A stretch of 12,640 nt of DNA from a virus (lineage: Duplodnaviria > Heunggongvirae > Uroviricota > Caudoviricetes): positions 1-12,640 of IMG/VR virus record IMGVR_UViG_2526164619_000008. One strand, given 5' to 3'. Positions 1,432 through 10,353 of the stretch are shown here, one piece after another. Within the stretch, counting starts at the first letter, position 1. Every line of letters starts with the position of its first letter. The position numbers and the translations under genes are program-made. A model generated the notes under the pieces. That model saw only the letters and a program-made list of their open reading frames with translations. It did not search any database and was not told where the DNA came from.

Positions 1432-1440
1432 GACTTTCTC
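1432..1440. repeat. 9-bp target-site duplication (GACTTTCTC), right copy, of the first IS1
   Basis: Exact repeat of 655..663. Confidence 0.85.
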
Positions 1441-1464
1441 TATATAATGATTTTTAGCATTAGT

Positions 1465-1496
1465 TAATAAACGAACGGCACTCTAAGGAGCGCCGT
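1465..1496 (-). terminator. Putative intrinsic terminator of the large cargo ORF
   Basis: On the minus strand, directly after the ORF stop: a 9-bp stem (ACGGCGCTC / GAGTGCCGT, one G-U pair) with a 4-nt loop, followed by TCGTTTATT. Folded by eye only. Confidence 0.45.
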
Positions 1497-1504
1497 CAAA
1501 GATA

Positions 1505-4336
1505 TTATTCTGATGTCACTCTTTGCGAGTGAGCTATTTTTAAATCAGCGTTTCCTTCAAATACTATATTCAACTCATAGTTAAGAGTTAGCTTGAATTT
1601 ATCTGAGTCACTTTTGATATTCTCTGAAGTGACATTTACTAACTTATTATTATCATATTCTCTAATAATTAATTTAGTGAAGTAGTTATCCTTTACCACT
1701 AGAGAAAATGGTTGATTAACAAATGGTAAGAAGTAAACCTTACAGGTACCGGATTCAGTAGTTATGTTCATAGAGCCATCATCATTTTTTCTCATTAGTT
1801 CTCTGAGGTTGGGATTATCGAAAAGCATACGATTATATTGCTGAAAGATCTCTTTACTCATCACAAGAACCAGTTTGCCAGCCAAGTCAGCAGATGATTT
1901 TATGTGATCAATCAACATATTGAAATCTTCTATTACGGTATGTTGCGAACAGCCAGTGCTAAATAAATTTGAAAGTATTATTCTCTGGATGTCCTTGAGA
2001 ATTAAGTCTGCTTGAATATCACCTTCATTGATATAAGGGATGGATTCTATTCCTTCGGCATACGGTTCTTTATCTATCTTAATAGATATCTTATGTTTTG
2101 TGAAACAATCGCTAGCCTGCTTAAAATCAATAGATTTGAAAAGTGAAAGAGGGAGTGTTTTCTTGATGCGTTTACGAAGATGTTCTGATGTTTTACGTGC
2201 AGTGCTATCTAGTCGATGTACATCTATGGCAGCATCCTGAAGTCTCATATCAAGATCTTTCTTTAGCATGTTAATATGCTCTTGAAGCAACTTTCTTAAG
2301 TTTTCTTTTTTTGTTTGGAGATCGTCCAATGTTAAAGTCAGCTTGATTTTAGTGTATTCGATGGAGTTACAAATTTTTGATAATACTCCAATGAGTCGTT
2401 GCTTCTCACGATATGTTATATAGTTTTTTTCTATTGCTTCTTTTATTTCTTTTGATACGCTATCGTTCTTGTTAGAAAAAATTAATAATAGCTGAACCCA
2501 TGATTGTTCCATATCAATAAATCCACAGTCAAAAACATTACTGTAAACTCTGCCCATCACCATGTCTGTTTTATCATAGTCACGTAAACGCCTTGCTAAA
2601 CTATTCATCCACCCATTGTGCTCCATATTTTCAGACCATGTCCACAGGCAGATTCTAATTAATATCTTGATTAGTTGGCTTGCATTATCAATTTCTTCAG
2701 TGGGAGTTTCATATCCACCGGTTTGGTCAATAAGTTTACCCTCTAAAATAAGTTTAATGTAATGTGTCATTAATTTGTCAGAAATATTGATTCTTGATGT
2801 CAGATAAAGACATGTGCATATACGCATGTCAGTCAACGCATTTATGATGGCAATATTGAACCACTCTCTGTCTGAATTGAAGTTTAGTTTTTTGGATATG
2901 AAAAAACCCGGGTTAAAAAGCTGGCCTTTGTAACTGTATTTTTCTACCGAATGGCTGTCAATATTCATTGAGTGCTGCCATCGGTTAATAAGAACGACGG
3001 CTGTATCAATAGTAGAAGGATCGCGAGTCTGTGTTGCATCAATAATCATCGATGGAAGTTCTTGTAGTTGCGTTTTGCAAAATAATTCAAATAAATCTGA
3101 ATTCTCTGTATTGCAGAAACGAAAGTTTATGCTTTCTTGATATTGCTCCCAAACAGTGGTATAGGTTCTTAATATACGATTATAACGTGAACGAAGCGAG
3201 GCATTTAAGAGTGATTGGTTGTTTCGGAACCATTCTGTTAATATTGACCATTGTGAACGAGTAATTCCCATATAGATACAAAGTTCATTGGTGATAAGAT
3301 GTTTTCTATTATTGATAATACGCACTCCGCTCCAAAGACATAATTCAAAAAATCTTTCAGAAAGATTAATTTTATCCATGGAATTATTTGATATTTTATA
3401 AACTTCATCTGAAAACTCATATTGAAAACTCCGTTCAAATAATTCTGTAGTGATCAGTAAGAAGTTATTGTTGGTATTATCATCTTGAAAAAAATACAAA
3501 TCGCAGAGATTATTAAAGTTATTAATTAATGCAGAGATAGCATTGTCAAAACTAATGAGATCAGAATCCCGCAGATACATATACGTATCTGCTGTTATAG
3601 CCTGCATTGTAAGACTTACGGAAAAATCTCCTCCTTTAATCGGAGCCCTATAAAAACATTGCTTAAGTATTTTTATTAATAAGCTGTCTGGTTTGATATT
3701 TTTAACGCTAAAAAGTATCTTACCCGTGGATTCTGTTTCTTTTGTACGATTATCACCAATGACAAATGACGCAAAATGATTCTTCTTTTTTAGTTGGTAA
3801 TTAATAAGATTAAGAGTAAGTTGAAAAGGACGGTGATATAAACTTAACTCATCTTCCTTAGAATAACTGCTAGCCACAGATATGTATTCTCCTTTGTAAC
3901 CGGCTTGCTTGATTTCTAAATTTGAATAGTTATGTTTTTGATAGATAGGGTATAACCTAAGCTTGGCTGAGATTTTGTTACAAATATGGGGCATTACTAT
4001 TTCGAAGGCAATGTATCGCTTTATAATTATTTGCCGTTTTACATCATCAAGAATTTCAAGACTCACGATAAAGAACCAAATAGAAAGAACTATGTTTATC
4101 AAAAGCCATAATATGCTGATTAGACAAGCTATACCATAAAGATAACTTCCAAAGACAGTTTTAATTAGTACACTGAGAAGTATAAATCCTGATAAGAAAA
4201 GCCCGCTGAGTCCAGCAAGCATGAATCCTGAGTAACGCTGATAAGCAGTTTGGGCTATTTTTCTATCTGCCTTTTTTTGGAATAAGACACTTACTAAACC
4301 TATAACAAGTGGGTATACAATACCAATAATTGTCAA
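1505..4336 (-). CDS. Large orphan protein (~943 aa) with a hydrophobic N-terminal region (about three predicted transmembrane helices) and a long Ile/Asn/Lys-rich soluble domain with coiled-coil-like stretches; function unknown
   Basis: Single uninterrupted ORF in a visibly AT-rich segment. The ORF-track start is TTG at 4336; the first in-frame ATG is at 4222 (codon 39), so the true start is uncertain. No Walker A or other catalytic motif recognised by eye. Confidence 0.7.
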   Translation of the reverse strand: MTIIGIVYPLVIGLVSVLFQKKADRKIAQTAYQRYSGFMLAGLSGLFLSGFILLSVLIKTVFGSYLYGIACLISILWLLINIVLSIWFFIVSLEILDDVKRQIIIKRYIAFEIVMPHICNKISAKLRLYPIYQKHNYSNLEIKQAGYKGEYISVASSYSKEDELSLYHRPFQLTLNLINYQLKKKNHFASFVIGDNRTKETESTGKILFSVKNIKPDSLLIKILKQCFYRAPIKGGDFSVSLTMQAITADTYMYLRDSDLISFDNAISALINNFNNLCDLYFFQDDNTNNNFLLITTELFERSFQYEFSDEVYKISNNSMDKINLSERFFELCLWSGVRIINNRKHLITNELCIYMGITRSQWSILTEWFRNNQSLLNASLRSRYNRILRTYTTVWEQYQESINFRFCNTENSDLFELFCKTQLQELPSMIIDATQTRDPSTIDTAVVLINRWQHSMNIDSHSVEKYSYKGQLFNPGFFISKKLNFNSDREWFNIAIINALTDMRICTCLYLTSRINISDKLMTHYIKLILEGKLIDQTGGYETPTEEIDNASQLIKILIRICLWTWSENMEHNGWMNSLARRLRDYDKTDMVMGRVYSNVFDCGFIDMEQSWVQLLLIFSNKNDSVSKEIKEAIEKNYITYREKQRLIGVLSKICNSIEYTKIKLTLTLDDLQTKKENLRKLLQEHINMLKKDLDMRLQDAAIDVHRLDSTARKTSEHLRKRIKKTLPLSLFKSIDFKQASDCFTKHKISIKIDKEPYAEGIESIPYINEGDIQADLILKDIQRIILSNLFSTGCSQHTVIEDFNMLIDHIKSSADLAGKLVLVMSKEIFQQYNRMLFDNPNLRELMRKNDDGSMNITTESGTCKVYFLPFVNQPFSLVVKDNYFTKLIIREYDNNKLVNVTSENIKSDSDKFKLTLNYELNIVFEGNADLKIAHSQRVTSE

Positions 4337-4871
4337 TTGGCCACTTAAAATGGTTGTTTGCCATTCGGTTAATGAATGCCTAAACGGGAAATAATGTAAA
4401 AGATTATTTTTTATAAATAATTCGTTTAAATATCCAACATAAAGTAGTACAAATGAAAAAGCTGATATGCAAAGTACTGATTTAACCGGTGAGGATGTTA
4501 ATCTTATGATGTTTTTTCAATAAAATTCCATTTTAAATTCGAATAAAATGGATTTTTAACCATTTTATTACGAACATAGTTCTTTGCTAAAATCTCTGTT
4601 GCACTTAAAAATTGTCCAATCATGAATTACTCTTCTATAAAGTGTGGGTCTACTAACTAAACTGGAATTTTTACTATTGAGTCATATTCCCTTGGACGGG
4701 ATGGACTGTGAAGATTATACTTGACTTCCTCTGTCATGTGGGAAAAACATCCGTATTATTGTTAGCATCTGGTTGATGCCCCAACCTCTGACATCTAGTG
4801 GGCTGATACATTATCTTTTGTTCTTACTGTCAGTGTAGAAGCACATCTCAAAAATAATATTTTTAAGAGAT
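4337..4871 (-). promoter_or_regulatory. AT-rich ~535-bp non-coding leader between the D stop and the cargo ORF; presumed promoter/regulatory region
   Basis: No ORF longer than ~26 codons on either strand; composition shifts abruptly at the gene D stop codon (4872). Confidence 0.35.
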
Positions 4872-5980
4872 TTATTCTATTTCTGCTATCCATTCCGGGA
4901 TTTTTGCTTCAAGTTCAAGCTGCGTGGTAAAGCCGCTGTTATCAATGGTGTGCTCGGCTTTTGCAATAATCCAGTCCTGATAATCAATCTCGCTTTTAAA
5001 GCCTGTCACTGTGCCATGCATTTCGGGATAGAGTTCTGCACGACCACGCGCCAGCGTGATGGAGAATGATGCGGCTCCGCGTTGTAGCTGCTGCCACTTT
5101 GCCGCCGCTGCGCGTCTTGCTGCCTGCTCGTTCTGATAAGTCTTGCGTAACACAAACACGTTGCCTTCCGCACCTTCCATATAGTCGCCTTCCCGACTGC
5201 TGCTTTTCTCCTTTTTGGGTTTTGGCGGTTTGCGGCGTTTCACGTTGACTTTTTTCTTTTCCCGTAATTAAGATCAAGCCAGTAGGCGCGTACCCCTGTA
5301 TACGCCTCGCGGTCAGCAATGCGGAACTGATGGCGATCGCCGCTGCTGCGTGTAATGGCGAACGAGGGCAACGGCTGCCCCTGTGCGTTCACGCCACCAC
5401 CTGGCATGATGAATAACAGATTGCCGCTTTTTACCGTGGCGATTGCTCCCAGCATTTCCGCCATGCGCGTAAGAAAGGACATGTCGCTTTCTTCGGTCTG
5501 GTCGGCGTGGTCGATTTCGATATCCATCAGCATTTCGCTGATTTGCGGTTTCAGGCCGTACCGATGAGCGATGGCGGATACCACACGCTCAACGGTCACA
5601 TCATGCCAGGACACCTCACGTTTAACGTTAAATTCATCCCGAAAATCTGCGCTTCTGGCTGAAACAGTCAGCCTGTCCGGCGGTCCTTCGTGAGCGATTT
5701 CATCAACAATGTAAGTGCCTTTTTCTGTCAGCGGTTCCCCTTTCCAGCCAATGAGAACCGTCAGACGCGCGCCCCGTGGCGGTAGCTGCAACTGACCATC
5801 CGCATCATCCAGCGTGATGGTGAGCTGGTCCGCCTCAAATCCCCGGTTGTCGGTCAGTGACAGGCACATCAGGCGCTCCGCCACGCCTGACAGCGTTTTA
5901 CCCTCCGAGAGAATATCAAAATCCGGCATTTTCACGGGGGCCGTGCCCTGACTGAGCAATTGCATGGTGGTGTCGGTCAT
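4872..5980 (-). pseudogene. D: P2-type tail protein D, interrupted by one frameshift in a homopolymer run (5250..5255)
   Basis: Two adjacent minus-strand ORFs (5240..6112 and 4872..5243) together match gpD (LTDNRGFEADQLTITLDDADGQLQLP..., SWHD, ITRSSGDRHQFRIADREAYTGV, REGDYMEGAEGNVFVL, GFTTQLELE). Adding one A to the AAAAAA run restores ...GKRKKVNVKRRKPPKPKKE.... Likely start is ATG at 5980 (MTDTTMQLL) with AGGGAGGGAG upstream. Confidence 0.85.
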
Positions 5981-6137: not shown

Positions 6138-7322
6138 ATGAGTGAAACTCGTTTTCATGGTGCCCGTGTTACGGAGAATACCGACCTGGTAACAGCGATT
6201 AACGATGTTGATTCCAGCGTTATCGGTATCGTGGCAACGGCGGATGATGCGGACGCGAAGCTGTTCCCGCTGAACAAGCCCACACTGCTGACCCGCGTCA
6301 ATGACGTGCTGGGAAAATGCGGGACAACGGGGACGCTTTATCGTGCGCTTAAGGCCATCGCAGACCAGGTGAGCACAAAGGTGATCGTCGTTCGCGTGGC
6401 TGAACACAAAGAAGAAGACGGAAAGACGCAGGATCAACTGGTTATCGGTGGTTCTGAGGATGACGGCAGCTATACGGGGATGTATGCGCTGCTTGTTGCA
6501 GAGCAGGATGAAAGCATCGGATACCGTCCGCATATTCTGGCCGCGCCGGAGCTGGACACGGAGGCGGTAACAAAATCCCTGTGCGTGATTGCAGATAAAC
6601 TGCGCGCGTTTGTGTATGCCTCATGTCATGGCTGTAACACGATGGCCGAGGCAATTACCTACCGCCAGAAATTCAACGAACGTGAGGTGATGCTCTTATG
6701 GCCGGACTTCATCGCCTACAACCCGAAAAATGGCAAAAACGAAACGTTCCCCGCGCCTGCCTATGCGTGCGGCCTTCGTGCGTACATTGACCATGAACAG
6801 GGATGGCACAAATCGCTGTCCAACGTTCCGGTTAAAAATGTGCTGGGGATGTCGAGGCATGTGTTCTGGTCGTTGCAGGCCGAAGACAGCGATGCCAACA
6901 GCCTCAACAACAAAGAAATCACGACCATTATTCGTCGCAACGGGTTCCGCTTCTGGGGTAACCGCACACCGGAAACGAATGCCTACATCTTTGAGGTGTA
7001 TACCCGAACCGCACAGGTGCTGGCTGATTCAATTGCGGAAGCGCAGTTTGAAACCATCGACAGTCCACTGACGCCTGCGAATGTGAAGGATGTTATCAGT
7101 GCCATCAGGGCAAAACTGGATTCACTGGTGACTGCCGGGAAACTGATTGGCGCGGAGTGCTGGTATGACGTGGTGGATAACAGCACCACGGATTTACGTC
7201 AGGGACGTGTGCGTATTCGCTACAAATATACGCCCGTTCCGCCACTGGAAGACATGGAGCTTTACCAGACGTTTACTGATGAATACTTTGAACCCGCATT
7301 TGCGGTGCTGGGAGGTGCCTGA
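6138..7322 (+). CDS. FI: P2-type contractile tail sheath protein FI (394 aa)
   Basis: Translation contains DADAKLFPLNKPTLL, KLRAFVYAS, LLWPDF, EQGWHKSLSNV, RRNGFRFWGNRT, YTRTAQVLAD, YKYTPVPPLE, which match recalled P2 FI blocks; size matches (P2 FI ~396 aa); AAGGGG RBS. Confidence 0.9.
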   Translation: MSETRFHGARVTENTDLVTAINDVDSSVIGIVATADDADAKLFPLNKPTLLTRVNDVLGKCGTTGTLYRALKAIADQVSTKVIVVRVAEHKEEDGKTQDQLVIGGSEDDGSYTGMYALLVAEQDESIGYRPHILAAPELDTEAVTKSLCVIADKLRAFVYASCHGCNTMAEAITYRQKFNEREVMLLWPDFIAYNPKNGKNETFPAPAYACGLRAYIDHEQGWHKSLSNVPVKNVLGMSRHVFWSLQAEDSDANSLNNKEITTIIRRNGFRFWGNRTPETNAYIFEVYTRTAQVLADSIAEAQFETIDSPLTPANVKDVISAIRAKLDSLVTAGKLIGAECWYDVVDNSTTDLRQGRVRIRYKYTPVPPLEDMELYQTFTDEYFEPAFAVLGGA

Positions 7323-7819
7323 TGGCTGTGCCAAAACATCTTCGCTTTTTTACGCTGTTTGTGGATGGTGAAAACGAAGTGGGTAAGGTGACGTCCGTCA
7401 CTCTGCCTAAGCTGACGCGCAAAACCGACAGCTACCGGGGTGGTGGCATGATGGGTGCGGTAAGTATTGATCTCGGTCTGGACGACTCCGCGCTTGATGC
7501 GAGCTTTGTCATGGGGGGCGCAGTTCGTGAGCTGTTCCTTAAGTATGGCGGCACGATTGACGGCACGCTGCTGCGTTTTGCGGGTGAATACTACACCGAT
7601 GCAGAAAGCGACCTGTATGAAGTCGAAATGCGCGGACGTGTGACGGAAATTGATATGGGCGAAGCCACATCACACACTTACGCCATTAAAAACACCTACT
7701 ACAAGCTGAGTGTTAACGATCGCCCGTTGTGGGAGATTGACCTGCTGAACTTCATTTACCGGAAGGACGGCAAGGACATTGTGCCCGATCGCATCCGTTC
7801 CGCGCTTGGGCTTGGCTGA
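7322..7819 (+). CDS. FII: P2-type tail tube protein FII (165 aa)
   Basis: Start overlaps the FI stop (TGATG); GGAGGTG RBS; position and size match P2 FII. Confidence 0.85.
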   Translation: MAVPKHLRFFTLFVDGENEVGKVTSVTLPKLTRKTDSYRGGGMMGAVSIDLGLDDSALDASFVMGGAVRELFLKYGGTIDGTLLRFAGEYYTDAESDLYEVEMRGRVTEIDMGEATSHTYAIKNTYYKLSVNDRPLWEIDLLNFIYRKDGKDIVPDRIRSALGLG

Positions 7820-7874: not shown

Positions 7875-8249
7875 ATGAAAGACATCGATACTGAAACCCG
7901 GAATAACACCGTGGCGGATAATGTGACGGCAGTTGAGGATATGGCTGTCGAACGTGGCGTAAAACTGACCCGACCAATTGAGCGTGGTGGCGAAAAAATC
8001 ACGTATGTGGAGATCACCGGGGCTATTGAGCAGGCTGGATCCCTGCGTGGTCTGTCGCTGTCTGATGCGCTGAATCTGAAAGCGGATACCATGTTCACGC
8101 TGTTGCCTCGCGTGACCTCGCCACGACTGGATGAAGTGATGATTAAAAAAATGTCGTCACGCGATTTTATTCAGTTGTGCGCTGTGGCTGTAAATTTTAT
8201 GAGCGAGCCAGACTCTGGCGCGAAGAGCGTGCAGGAGACGGCAGCGTAA
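7875..8249 (+). CDS. E: Tail assembly chaperone E-like protein (124 aa)
   Basis: Called by synteny (directly after FII), AAAGGAG RBS 7 nt upstream of the ATG, and an overlapping -1 frame ORF as in the P2 E/E' pair. Not confirmed by sequence identity. Confidence 0.65.
   Translation: MKDIDTETRNNTVADNVTAVEDMAVERGVKLTRPIERGGEKITYVEITGAIEQAGSLRGLSLSDALNLKADTMFTLLPRVTSPRLDEVMIKKMSSRDFIQLCAVAVNFMSEPDSGAKSVQETAA
8192..8198 (+). other. Candidate -1 programmed frameshift heptamer A_AAT_TTT joining E to E'
   Basis: Zero-frame codons AAT TTT preceded by A give an X_XXY_YYZ heptamer inside the 8177..8249 overlap of the E frame and the -1 frame. Confidence 0.4.
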
Positions 8250-8389
8250 TCACCCTGGTGTGCTTTGAGCACATCGAAGATCTGGTGGCGGATATTGCCG
8301 CCATTTTTAACTGGTCGCCCGCCGAAATCTTCATGATGACGCCCGGCGAAGTGGTTAGCTGGCGTGAGCGGGCGGCACTTCGTAGCGGG
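8198..8389 (+). pseudogene. E' extension reading frame (-1 relative to E), 3' end cut by IS1
   Basis: The -1 frame stays open from 8177 and runs into IS1 with no native stop (...EVVSWRERAALRSGG then IS1-encoded NAANLLI*). Confidence 0.55.
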
Positions 8390-8444
8390 GGTAATGCTGC
8401 CAACTTACTGATTTAGTGTATGATGGTGATTTTAAGGTGCTTGC

Positions 8445-8720
8445 GTGGCTTCCATTTCCATCAGATGTCCTTCCTGCACCGCTACTGAAGGCGTGGTGCG
8501 TAACGGCAAAAGCACTGCCGGACATCAGCGCTATCTCTGCTCTCATTGCCGTAAAACATGGCAACTACAGTTCACTTACACCGCCTCTCAGCCCGGTACG
8601 CACCAGAAAATCATTGATATGGCCATGAATGGCGTCGGATGTCGCGCCAGTGCACGCATTATGGGCGTTGGCCTCAACACGGTTTTACGTCACTTAAAAA
8701 ACTCAGGCCGCAGTCGGTAA
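8445..8720 (+). CDS. insA: IS1 InsA (91 aa; GTG start in this copy)
   Basis: Same protein as 719..994 with one substitution (S12T); start codon GTG here versus ATG in the first copy. Confidence 0.95.
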
Positions 8721-9142
8721 CCTCGCGCATACAACCGGGCAGTGATGTGATTGTCTGCGCTGAAATGGACGAACAGTGGGGCTACGTCGGTGCTAAATCA
8801 CATCAGCGCTGGCTGTTTTACGCGTATGACAGGATACGGAGGACGGTTGTGGCGCACGTCTTCGGTGAACGCACTCTGGCCACACTGGAGCGTCTTCTGA
8901 GCCTGCTGTCGGCCTTTGAGGTCGTGGTATGGATGACGGATGGCTGGCCGCTGTATGAATCACGCCTGAAGGGAAAGCTGCACGTTATCAGCAAGCGTTA
9001 CACTCAGCGCATTGAGCGACATAATCTGAATCTGAGACAACATCTGGCAAGGCTGGGACGGAAGTCACTGTCGTTCTCAAAATCGGTGGAGCTGCATGAC
9101 AAGGTCATCGGGCATTATCTGAACATAAAACACTATCAGTAA
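8639..9142 (+). CDS. insB: IS1 InsB reading frame (InsAB' via -1 frameshift at A6C 8696..8702)
   Basis: Same as 913..1416 with one substitution (R55H). Confidence 0.9.
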
Positions 9143-9157
9143 GTTGGAGTCATTACC

Positions 9158-10353
9158 GAGTCGCGCATGGTGGCCCCGTTCCATTTGGGGTTCGGATGAC
9201 CGTTCTCCGTTGTTGCGTGGTATTTTGACGGGCAGTTGACAGTCAGAAACACCGCTTTGTCACCACGGGCTTCGGCCAGAGGTTCCAGCCCCTTCATGGT
9301 GGCCATCATTTCTGCCTTACGGTGAACCGGGTTACTTACTCCCGCGTAATACACTGTCTCGAGATCAATCGTGAACCCGTCTTCATTTTCCAGCATGAAA
9401 CTTTTCAGGAAATCGCGTGTTTTCTCGCGCTGTGCGCGAAACTCGCTTAACGCGTCCTGGCTCAGATAGGGCGATGTTTTTCTGAAAACCAGACAGGCGG
9501 CGCGGAGTTGTTCTTCTCTCCACTCGCAACGTAACAGCCACAGTTTGCGTTTCCACCATTCTGCACAGGTCAGGCGAAGGATTGCGCCCGGCAGCAGCTC
9601 CGTGTCCGGTTCGTTCCTCCGGTCTTTGTCTGTTGTCAGTGCGTCATAATGTGGAGGCATGGCGTGCAGGTGTAACGCCATGCGGGCCAGCATCTGATAC
9701 GCCTTCAGCGTTACATCCATGGTCAGTTCGCCATCGGTCGCGCCAAAGCCATCGCAGAGTTTTTCGAAGGTGCTGCTGAACATCGCTGCCGTCATGGTGG
9801 CCAGTGTCTGTATCTGGTGTTTGTTGAGCTGCGGCAGGTAAAGCAAATCGTCCAGGCGTTCGCGTCCGGCAAGGGAGCGATAACCCTGTGTCAGCCAGCG
9901 GTGATCGGTGCGCTCCAGACGTTCGAATATTTTGCGCAGGTTTCCGCGCGCGTAGCGTTCAGCCTGCCAGCTCTTTTTGCCTTTCTGACGATCGGCTTCC
10001 TGTTTTTTGCGCAGGAAGGAGAGGTGGCGAATAAGCGGATCGCGCAGATAGGACGGCAGCAGGCGCAGCGAGGCCATGGCTTCATCCACCGCGCCGCGTG
10101 CCTGTTTTCTGGCATCTCCTGCCAGTGTGATGGTTTTGTCCTGTTTTTCCTGTGCGTCCAGGCTTTTATTAATCAGGTTGCCCAGCGGCGTTGCGGAGAA
10201 CGCCGCATCAGCCATTTCCTGGCGGCGCTCGTTCTCTACCCGGTAGGCATCCAGCCAGGAGGAAAGCGCGGATTCAGGAGCGGGGATCCCCGTTCCTTCA
10301 CGCCCCACTGCGTGGCGCGGTTGTTGCCAGTCCCTGATGTACTCTGCCGTCAT
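9158..10353 (-). pseudogene. A: P2-type replication initiation protein A, N-terminal ~398 codons only; 3' part replaced by IS1
   Basis: Translation has HAVGREGTG and FLTVNCPSKYHATT blocks resembling recalled P2/186 A-protein motifs; the ORF runs from ATG 10353 into the IS1 right end, whose sequence supplies the last 7 codons and stop. P2 A is ~761 aa, so the catalytic C-terminal half is missing. Confidence 0.7.

Follow-up and report, generated by a model that had tools for sequence, protein, structure and literature searches.

A probable P2-type tail-chaperone recoding site, one codon upstream of the P2 heptamer, in a P88-like prophage

The E/E' locus and its operon context

The window analyzed here is a 12,640-nucleotide stretch of DNA from a tailed virus of the class Caudoviricetes. 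The DNA is 99% identical to prophage regions of many E. coli genomes, and the nearest named phages are members of Xuanwuvirus, namely, P88_4B11, 503458, and Shae_phiSM (99% identity) and P88 (87%). The genes are arranged in the order FI-FII-E-E', as in P2-family prophages, with E located directly 3' of FII, as in P2. The features of the region are as follows:

6138-7322, plus strand: FI, tail sheath (Pfam Phage_sheath_1)
7322-7819, plus strand: FII, tail tube (Pfam Phage_tube, E 1.2e-40)
7875-8249, plus strand: gene E, tail assembly chaperone, 0 frame; ATG at 7875, stop TAA at 8247-8249, 124 aa
8144-8146, plus strand: -1-frame TAA that bounds the overlap on its upstream side in the window lineage
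8145-8151, plus strand: A7 run (ATT AAA AAA ATG), an alternative slip site that was rejected
8192-8198, plus strand: candidate slippery heptamer A_AAT_TTT, in phase with E; P site AAU-Asn, A site UUU-Phe
8195-8201, plus strand: where the P2-type heptamer would lie, reading T_TTT_ATG after a TTG-to-ATG (Leu-to-Met) change; slipperiness lost
8198-8389, plus strand: native E' coding sequence (YERARLWREER...WRERAALRSG), -1 frame, to be read after the shift
8207-8242, plus strand: predicted imperfect hairpin, a possible stimulator, starting 8 nt after the heptamer
8390-9159, plus strand: IS1 copy truncating E' and separating E/E' from T, 99.5% identical to the copy at 664-1433

Gene E matches PHROG 103 "tail protein" (E 1.7e-35) and, weakly, Pfam Phage_TAC_7 (PF10109; 20.6 bits, under the 25-bit cutoff); no NCBIfam model matched E or the E+E' fusion. 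The PHROG 103 match, together with an alignment to P2 E+E' (E 6e-28) that spans the E part, places E in the P2 gpE chaperone family. The -1 frame carries Pfam PF06528, Phage_P2_GpE (45.2 bits against a 23-bit cutoff, E 6.6e-12), and PHROG 1756 matches the fusion over residues 104-177 (E 1.7e-38). The tube gene FII is followed by two overlapping open reading frames (ORFs); in the intact relative L001, T lies directly 3' of E', whereas in the window T itself is absent, the locus being cut by IS1.

The E-frame codons at 8190-8201 read GTA AAT TTT ATG, and the A_AAT_TTT at 8192-8198 is the only in-phase X_XXY_YYZ heptamer in the whole of E. An earlier note on this DNA had placed such a heptamer inside the overlap of E and the -1 frame, which is confirmed. 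Its figure of about 70 nt for the overlap needs correction: the -1 frame is open from 8147 to past the stop of E, giving a stop-to-stop overlap of 103 nt (8147-8249), and position 8177 is merely the first GTG of that frame. In codon shuffles of E, the chance of at least one in-phase heptamer per 34-codon stretch was 9%, so that the heptamer by itself is weak evidence and the case rests on homology. The heptamer is identical in ~100 loci of the window lineage, but conservation at this level has little power because the sequences of this lineage are 96% to 100% identical.

In RefSeq and GenBank entries for P88-like elements (L001, L002, L003, L005, L094, and L095), E' is either given as an independent 51-aa CDS starting from a GTG after the stop of E or omitted, and in the phiSM record it is unannotated. 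RefSeq annotations, sampled from ~1,450 E. coli genome records with a match, label the prophage regions as sheath, tube, "hypothetical protein," a 51-aa "GpE family phage tail protein," and then the tape-measure gene. A programmed frameshift is annotated in none of the P88-like records examined, unlike in the P2 reference NC_001895, and the E+E' fusion is missing from both these records and the sampled RefSeq annotations. In the reading of PGAP and several GenBank records, E' would be a small gene in its own right, initiated at the GTG equivalent to 8258, and no frameshift would be needed. We give this reading very little credence, considering that neither GTG 8177 nor GTG 8258 is preceded by a Shine-Dalgarno sequence at a usable distance (the AGGAG nearest to GTG 8258 lies ~20 nt upstream) and that conserved -1 coding starts upstream of both. 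The -1-frame segment upstream of GTG 8258 (LWREER.GDG..IT) is conserved as protein across distant lineages, the PHROG 1756 match starts at fusion residue 104, and the P2 product is annotated as a frameshift fusion.

Homology with P2 and a family survey of the slip site

Phage P2 produces E and E+E' by a -1 programmed frameshift, reportedly described by Christie and colleagues in 2002. In the reference record NC_001895, E has 91 aa and E+E' is entered as a joined CDS of 142 aa; the record puts the -1 translational frameshift at 19685, the base right after TTTTTTG, and calls E+E' an essential tail protein resulting from a -1 frameshift; the same TTTTTTG site is given for P2 in PMC3091744, according to which P2 has no downstream hairpin. 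We constructed fusions in silico by slipping at candidate heptamers. The P2 fusion built in this way (85 + 57 = 142 aa) agrees with the annotation, and the window fusion is collinear with P2 E+E' (32% identity, E 6e-28), with junction falling on junction, the window ...VNF/Y being aligned to P2 ...VGF/L. The resemblance to the P2-type tail-chaperone frameshift suggested in the earlier note is borne out by this collinearity. Furthermore, the slip-site Phe does not vary in an eight-sequence E+E' alignment and is present in every distinct site sequence retrieved; since the TTT (Phe) codon is common to A_AAT_TTT and to the annotated P2 heptamer, homology lifts the site above chance. Phase, homology, conservation, and junction alignment are established for the site. 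The gene order, the GpE domain in the -1 frame, and the junction alignment support the earlier proposal of a putative -1 programmed frameshift leading to an E+E' fusion.

P2 and the window share the order FI-FII-E-E'-T (the window copy being without T), homologous proteins, the -1 direction, and a slip site at the conserved Phe codon toward the 3' end of E. They differ in the heptamer, which is T_TTT_TTG (GGT TTT TTG) in P2 and A_AAT_TTT, one codon upstream, in the window; in the length of E, which is 124 aa with an N-terminal extension in the window versus 91 aa in P2; in the overlap (103 nt versus 37 nt); and in the E' linker, where the window has an extra conserved segment (LWREER.GDG). The exact P2 heptamer is lacking at the window site. 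Its position, placed by anchored comparison with P2, P88, and other relatives, is occupied by T_TTT_ATG (8195-8201), which leaves A_AAT_TTT alone and accords with the earlier observation that the site is unlike the T-run of P2. The missing T_TTT_TTG does not put the site outside the class, in which T_TTT_TTA, T_TTT_TTT, or C_CCT_TTC serve in other members. By sequence comparison, the site is homologous to the T_TTT_TTG of P2, displaced one codon upstream.

The slip site was surveyed in ~170 loci from complete E. coli genomes, named phages, IMG/VR contigs, and two species-collection genomes, which represent 65 distinct E/E' overlaps, with the sites anchored on the Phe codon. Across the ~170 loci, the homologous column holds a slippery motif with the conserved Phe codon at its center. 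The codons and the heptamers that they contain are as follows:

P2 and Yersinia phages: GGT TTT TTG; T_TTT_TTG
Many lineages: ACG/ACA CCT TTT TTG or TTA; T_TTT_TTG/A
Several lineages: GTC/ATC CCT TTT TTG; C_CCT_TTT and T_TTT_TTG
L126: GCG AAT TTT TTT; T_TTT_TTT
P88-type: GTA AAT TTT TTG; A_AAT_TTT and T_TTT_TTG
L003 and L122: GTT AAT TTT TTG; T_TTT_TTG only, with a -1 TAA overlapping the AAT codon
Klebsiella Reipivirus (~20 loci): GTC CCT TTC TTG; C_CCT_TTC only
Window lineage: GTA AAT TTT ATG; A_AAT_TTT only

Among the E/E' relatives, whose alignment the earlier note had proposed as a check, a slippery motif at the homologous column is conserved, and the identity of the heptamer varies among lineages. 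Strong synonymous constraint is apparent on both sides of the Phe codon: the preceding codon is always NNT (Pro CCT, Gly GGT, or Asn AAT), and the Leu that follows is always encoded by TTR, never by CTN. The nearest -1 stops overlap the AAT codon in L003 and L122 and lie 9 nt upstream of the heptamer in P2 and a Yersinia phage, so that the shift must fall at or after the TTT codon.

Stops in the -1 frame also bear on a different slip site, the A7 run, where slippage of lysyl-tRNA or of the transcribing polymerase would exploit the longer -1 opening of the window lineage. The -1 frame does open at 8147, just inside the run, and tRNA-Lys is the shiftiest E. coli tRNA, with A-runs being strongly avoided in genes (PMC4066793). 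However, the run reads T_AAA_AAA followed by ATG in phase and offers no canonical heptamer; P88, L005, and L091 share the IKKM sequence but have a -1 TGA downstream of the run, and the close relatives L026, L029, and L031 have a -1 TGA at CGT GAT, between the run and E'. The -1 translation of 8147-8195 is not conserved, whereas conservation (W..ER.GDG) begins right after the TTT codon. In addition, seven A's are short for transcriptional slippage. Being out of canonical phase, and with -1 stops intervening in the P88-type elements and three close relatives, the A7 run was rejected, and we see only a very slight chance that it is used. A second Phe codon (GAT TTT ATT, 8163-8171) was likewise rejected: it provides a U_UUU tetramer only, varies between TTT and TTC in relatives, and has a homologous position upstream of the -1 stops of P88, L003, and P2.

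Two lineages have lost T_TTT_TTR by different mutations; in each, the register one codon further upstream still holds a perfect heptamer (GTA AAT TTT and GTC CCT TTC), whereas any of C, G, A, or T precedes the upstream-register codon in loci with an intact T_TTT_TTR. The second of these lineages, that of Klebsiella phage ST16-OXA48phi5.4 (Reipivirus), lost the T6 run independently and retains C_CCT_TTC alone, an exact analogue of A_AAT_TTT; its P-site codon is CCU-Pro rather than AAU-Asn, and the loss occurred by TTT to TTC rather than by TTG to ATG. P88 has A_AAT_TTT at the same position as the window, belongs to the same genus-level lineage, and displays ~87% DNA identity to it over E-E'; unlike the window, it also keeps T_TTT_TTG, which overlaps A_AAT_TTT by 4 nt, and a -1 TGA shortens its overlap to 85 nt. 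The ancestor probably possessed the overlapping pair A_AAT_TTT_TTG, as in present-day P88, and the window lineage would then have lost the downstream heptamer through TTG to ATG. As judged from these alignments, the two independent cases are suggestive, although not proof, both of the upstream-register heptamer being sufficient and of the loss of the P2-type heptamer having been tolerated because an overlapping second heptamer pre-existed.

Variation of other kinds was encountered in the IMG/VR material. Three near-identical contigs, L125, L109, and L124 (locus position ~1138-1165), differ solely in the length of the T-run after CCC, which is T6, T7, and T8, respectively; in the T7 variant, E and E' are in one frame as a constitutive fusion, and in the T8 variant, E ends right after the run. 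These differences reflect either sequencing errors in a homopolymer or genuine slippage mutations of the recoding site. L096, with a window-type E/E', has an extra frameshifting indel within E' (...FEHIEDFGGGYCRHF*, then another frame) and is a degraded copy.

Slippage on A_AAU_UUU and possible stimulators

From the comparisons above, we consider it likely that the E/E' tail-assembly chaperones of a P88-like prophage (Xuanwuvirus, Peduoviridae) are recoded at this site, by tandem slippage on A_AAU_UUU. The slippage itself, its efficiency, and the function of the products are what we infer for this site. The majority of ribosomes on E would stop at 8247-8249 and yield E (124 aa), and a minority would move back one base on A_AAU_UUU (8192-8198). 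The P-site tRNA-Asn would then leave AAU and re-pair with AAA, the A-site tRNA-Phe would meet UUU in both frames, and decoding would resume at UAU (8198). This is predicted to yield an E+E' fusion that reads ...AVAVNF-YERARLW... across the junction and measures 179 aa (108 + 71) in intact relatives; its predicted tryptic junction peptide is DFIQLCAVAVNFYER. If P2 E+E' and lambda GT are a guide, E and the fusion would act together on the tape-measure protein in tail assembly.

The gag-pol slippery site of Rous sarcoma virus, A_AAU_UUA, resembles that of the window in that a P-site AAU-Asn re-pairs to AAA and is followed by a UUN codon in the A site, but it belongs to a eukaryotic retroviral, pseudoknot-dependent system that is unrelated to the window in sequence and function. 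The lambda heptamer, G_GGA_AAG, also differs from that of the window, and the likeness of lambda G/GT is one of arrangement, consisting in the ORF layout and the -1 heptamer shift. As summarized in PMC3091744, lambda G/GT and tailed phages generally have two overlapping ORFs between the tube and tape-measure genes (Xu, Hendrix and Duda 2004), and the -1 shift on an X_XXY_YYZ heptamer in tailed phages yields a minor fusion product.

Slippage of all 64 heptamers has been measured in E. coli (Sharma et al. 2014). The values reported for three of them, as percent -1 frameshifting together with the z-score of in-phase occurrence in E. coli genes (PMC4066793 Table S3), are as follows:

AAAUUUU: no stimulator 0.070%, IS911 stimulators 0.355%, IS3 pseudoknot 11.4%; in-phase z -9.1
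UUUUUUG (P2): no stimulator 0.118%, IS911 stimulators 0.247%, IS3 pseudoknot 0.765%; in-phase z 0.14
CCCUUUC: no stimulator 0.193%, IS911 stimulators 1.39%, IS3 pseudoknot 23.2%; in-phase z 0.12

In the same study, E. coli genes show strong avoidance of in-phase A_AAU_UUU (z -9.1), and R_RR.U_UU.Y motifs are singled out as efficient despite their heterogeneous P-site codon (PMC4066793). The imperfect re-pairing of tRNA-Asn (AAU to AAA), previously raised as a concern, turns out to be unfounded, as a P-site wobble mismatch is the normal X_XXY case; it is also countered by the A_AAU_UUU reporters, which reach 0.355% with the IS911 stimulators and 11.4% with the IS3 pseudoknot (PMC4066793 Table S3). 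The true weak point of A_AAU_UUU is that, with no stimulator, it is close to background, 0.070% against a reporter background of ~0.055% (PMC4066793).

The same site could also be used with other mechanics, by tRNA-Phe alone slipping on U_UUU (8195-8198), with no tandem re-pairing of tRNA-Asn. Such a slip would take place in the A site only, or in the P site while the A site waits at AUG, and would leave the protein product unchanged. It draws support from the dominance of the A-site codon in determining efficiency in E. coli (PMC4066793), from the 0.80% obtained with the U_UUU tetramer and a pseudoknot versus 0.07% for a mutated control (PMC4066793 Table S2), and from the TTT codon being the conserved core of the site across the family. 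Nevertheless, in both lineages devoid of T_TTT_TTR the upstream heptamer is complete down to its X base (GTA, GTC), a base that is variable elsewhere, and, with the IS3 pseudoknot, the A_AAU_UUU heptamer at 11.4% far exceeds the U_UUU tetramer at 0.8% (PMC4066793). Since site and product are the same, sequence cannot separate a single-tRNA from a tandem slip; weighing the above, we regard the single-tRNA version as unlikely and favor tandem slippage on the heptamer.

Folding of the 52 nt after the heptamer gave a minimum free energy of -19 kcal/mol (z -1.98), with 6 of 200 shuffles as good. The hairpin at 8207-8242 is marginal and is absent from P88 and P2, and L048, a natural variant of the window lineage, weakens its stem. 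When 50 to 60 nt were folded in ~50 distinct relatives (z from about -2 to +1.8), no conserved downstream structure was shared among them, and lineages without the T6 run displayed no excess of stability. Inspection of 8175-8191 by eye revealed no Shine-Dalgarno-like upstream stimulator, and the whole window had no Rfam match at gathering thresholds. On the basis of these folding predictions, a stimulatory structure at the site is possible but unsupported. In reporters, A_AAU_UUU is ~15 times more responsive to downstream structure than the U_UUU_UUG of P2. We entertain, as a rather doubtful suggestion, that the slip site moved one codon upstream, as allowed by the ancestral A_AAT_TTT_TTG, and that the remaining heptamer may depend on the lineage-specific hairpin at 8207-8242. 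If true, the stimulator-free frameshift of P2 would have become a structure-stimulated one, with a different E:E+E' ratio.

State of this copy, spread of the site, and significance

Homology to the intact relative L001 stops at 8389, where IS1 starts, and judging from L001, the insertion point is located 10 nt upstream of the start of T. The last seven residues of E' (NADNEDS) are replaced by the IS1-encoded GNAANLLI, with a new stop, TAG, at 8414-8416. T and U are absent from the window; in the right flank, this IS1 copy links the cut E' to replication gene A, which lies on the minus strand (9136-10353) and lacks its C-terminal part, matching positions 1-216 of the 321 in Pfam Phage_GPA. The missing T, U, and rest of the tail operon suggest an IS1-mediated deletion or rearrangement. 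The E'-IS1 junction was found in none of 5,426 complete E. coli genomes. The E/E' frameshift signal in the window is an intact copy inside a dead operon, that is, a relic, which cannot be under selection because IS1 disrupted the operon.

Both IS1 copies (664-1433 and 8390-9159, in the same orientation) carry the classic insA/insB' heptamer A_AAA_AAC, at 970-976 and 8696-8702; the latter is in phase with insA (8445-8720), with insB' in the -1 frame (8639-9142). Together with the E/E' site, the two IS1 heptamers bring the number of -1 frameshift signals in the window to three. The left end (1-633) matches the part of this prophage type that holds the Hok/Gef toxin and ogr (92% identity to L001) and is cut off from the remainder by the first IS1 copy and a low-GC (32-38%) cargo segment at 1434-4873, between ogr/IS1 and a gpD fragment. 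This segment, present in only 5 of the 5,426 complete E. coli genomes, corresponds in position to a P2 hotspot for anti-phage genes, reportedly described by Rousset in 2022. Its ORF (1505-4336, minus strand, 943 aa) had no Pfam, PADLOC, or PDB match, and its interpretation as an inverted tape-measure gene was rejected, there being no similarity to T. In the five genomes, the ORF is 1,039 aa long and labeled "MFS transporter" or hypothetical; given the 943 aa here, the window copy may be N-terminally disrupted.

The site is widespread beyond this copy. The window-type 60-mer (8170-8229) is present in 599 of 5,426 complete E. coli genomes (526 of them with an exact match), and the same or a near-identical overlap is found in many IMG/VR prophage contigs of 33 to 40 kb. 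The record of the Citrobacter phage Shae_phiSM is identical to the window across the whole overlap. The phage phiSM gives plaques on E. coli K-12, and it and one other prophage of C. rodentium were found to yield infective virions (PMC6456863; bioRxiv 10.1101/2025.01.01.630987); from name and host, the Shae_phiSM GenBank record appears to represent this phage. By analogy, given the "essential tail protein" of the P2 record, E+E' would be essential in phiSM as well.

These occurrences are relevant to whether the change of TTG to ATG crippled the frameshift, such that in the window lineage E+E' would be made at error level only and the heptamer would be an ancestral leftover. We deem this quite improbable. 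Although A_AAU_UUU is near background when unstimulated (PMC4066793), the fold survey uncovered no convincing stimulator, and many of the carriers, including the window and L001, are degraded prophages, the identical sequence is found in the record of Shae_phiSM, and phiSM forms plaques (PMC6456863). Many full-length prophage contigs have the same or a near-identical overlap, and E' of this lineage is still intact and under dual-frame constraint. Moreover, the U_UUU_UUG of P2 is equally weak with no stimulator (0.118%), and yet E+E' is described as essential in the P2 record.

The site belongs to the known class of P2-type tail-chaperone frameshifts, with the heptamer one codon off; the biology is textbook. 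As the family shows, programmed frameshifting can move from one overlapping heptamer to the other, with two lineages having kept the upstream one, and since these lineages are without the canonical P2 heptamer, searches that demand TTTTTTG miss real sites. The variants T_TTT_TTG, A_AAT_TTT_TTG, A_AAT_TTT, and C_CCT_TTC, all in one protein context, constitute a natural test set for relating heptamer identity to the chaperone ratio.
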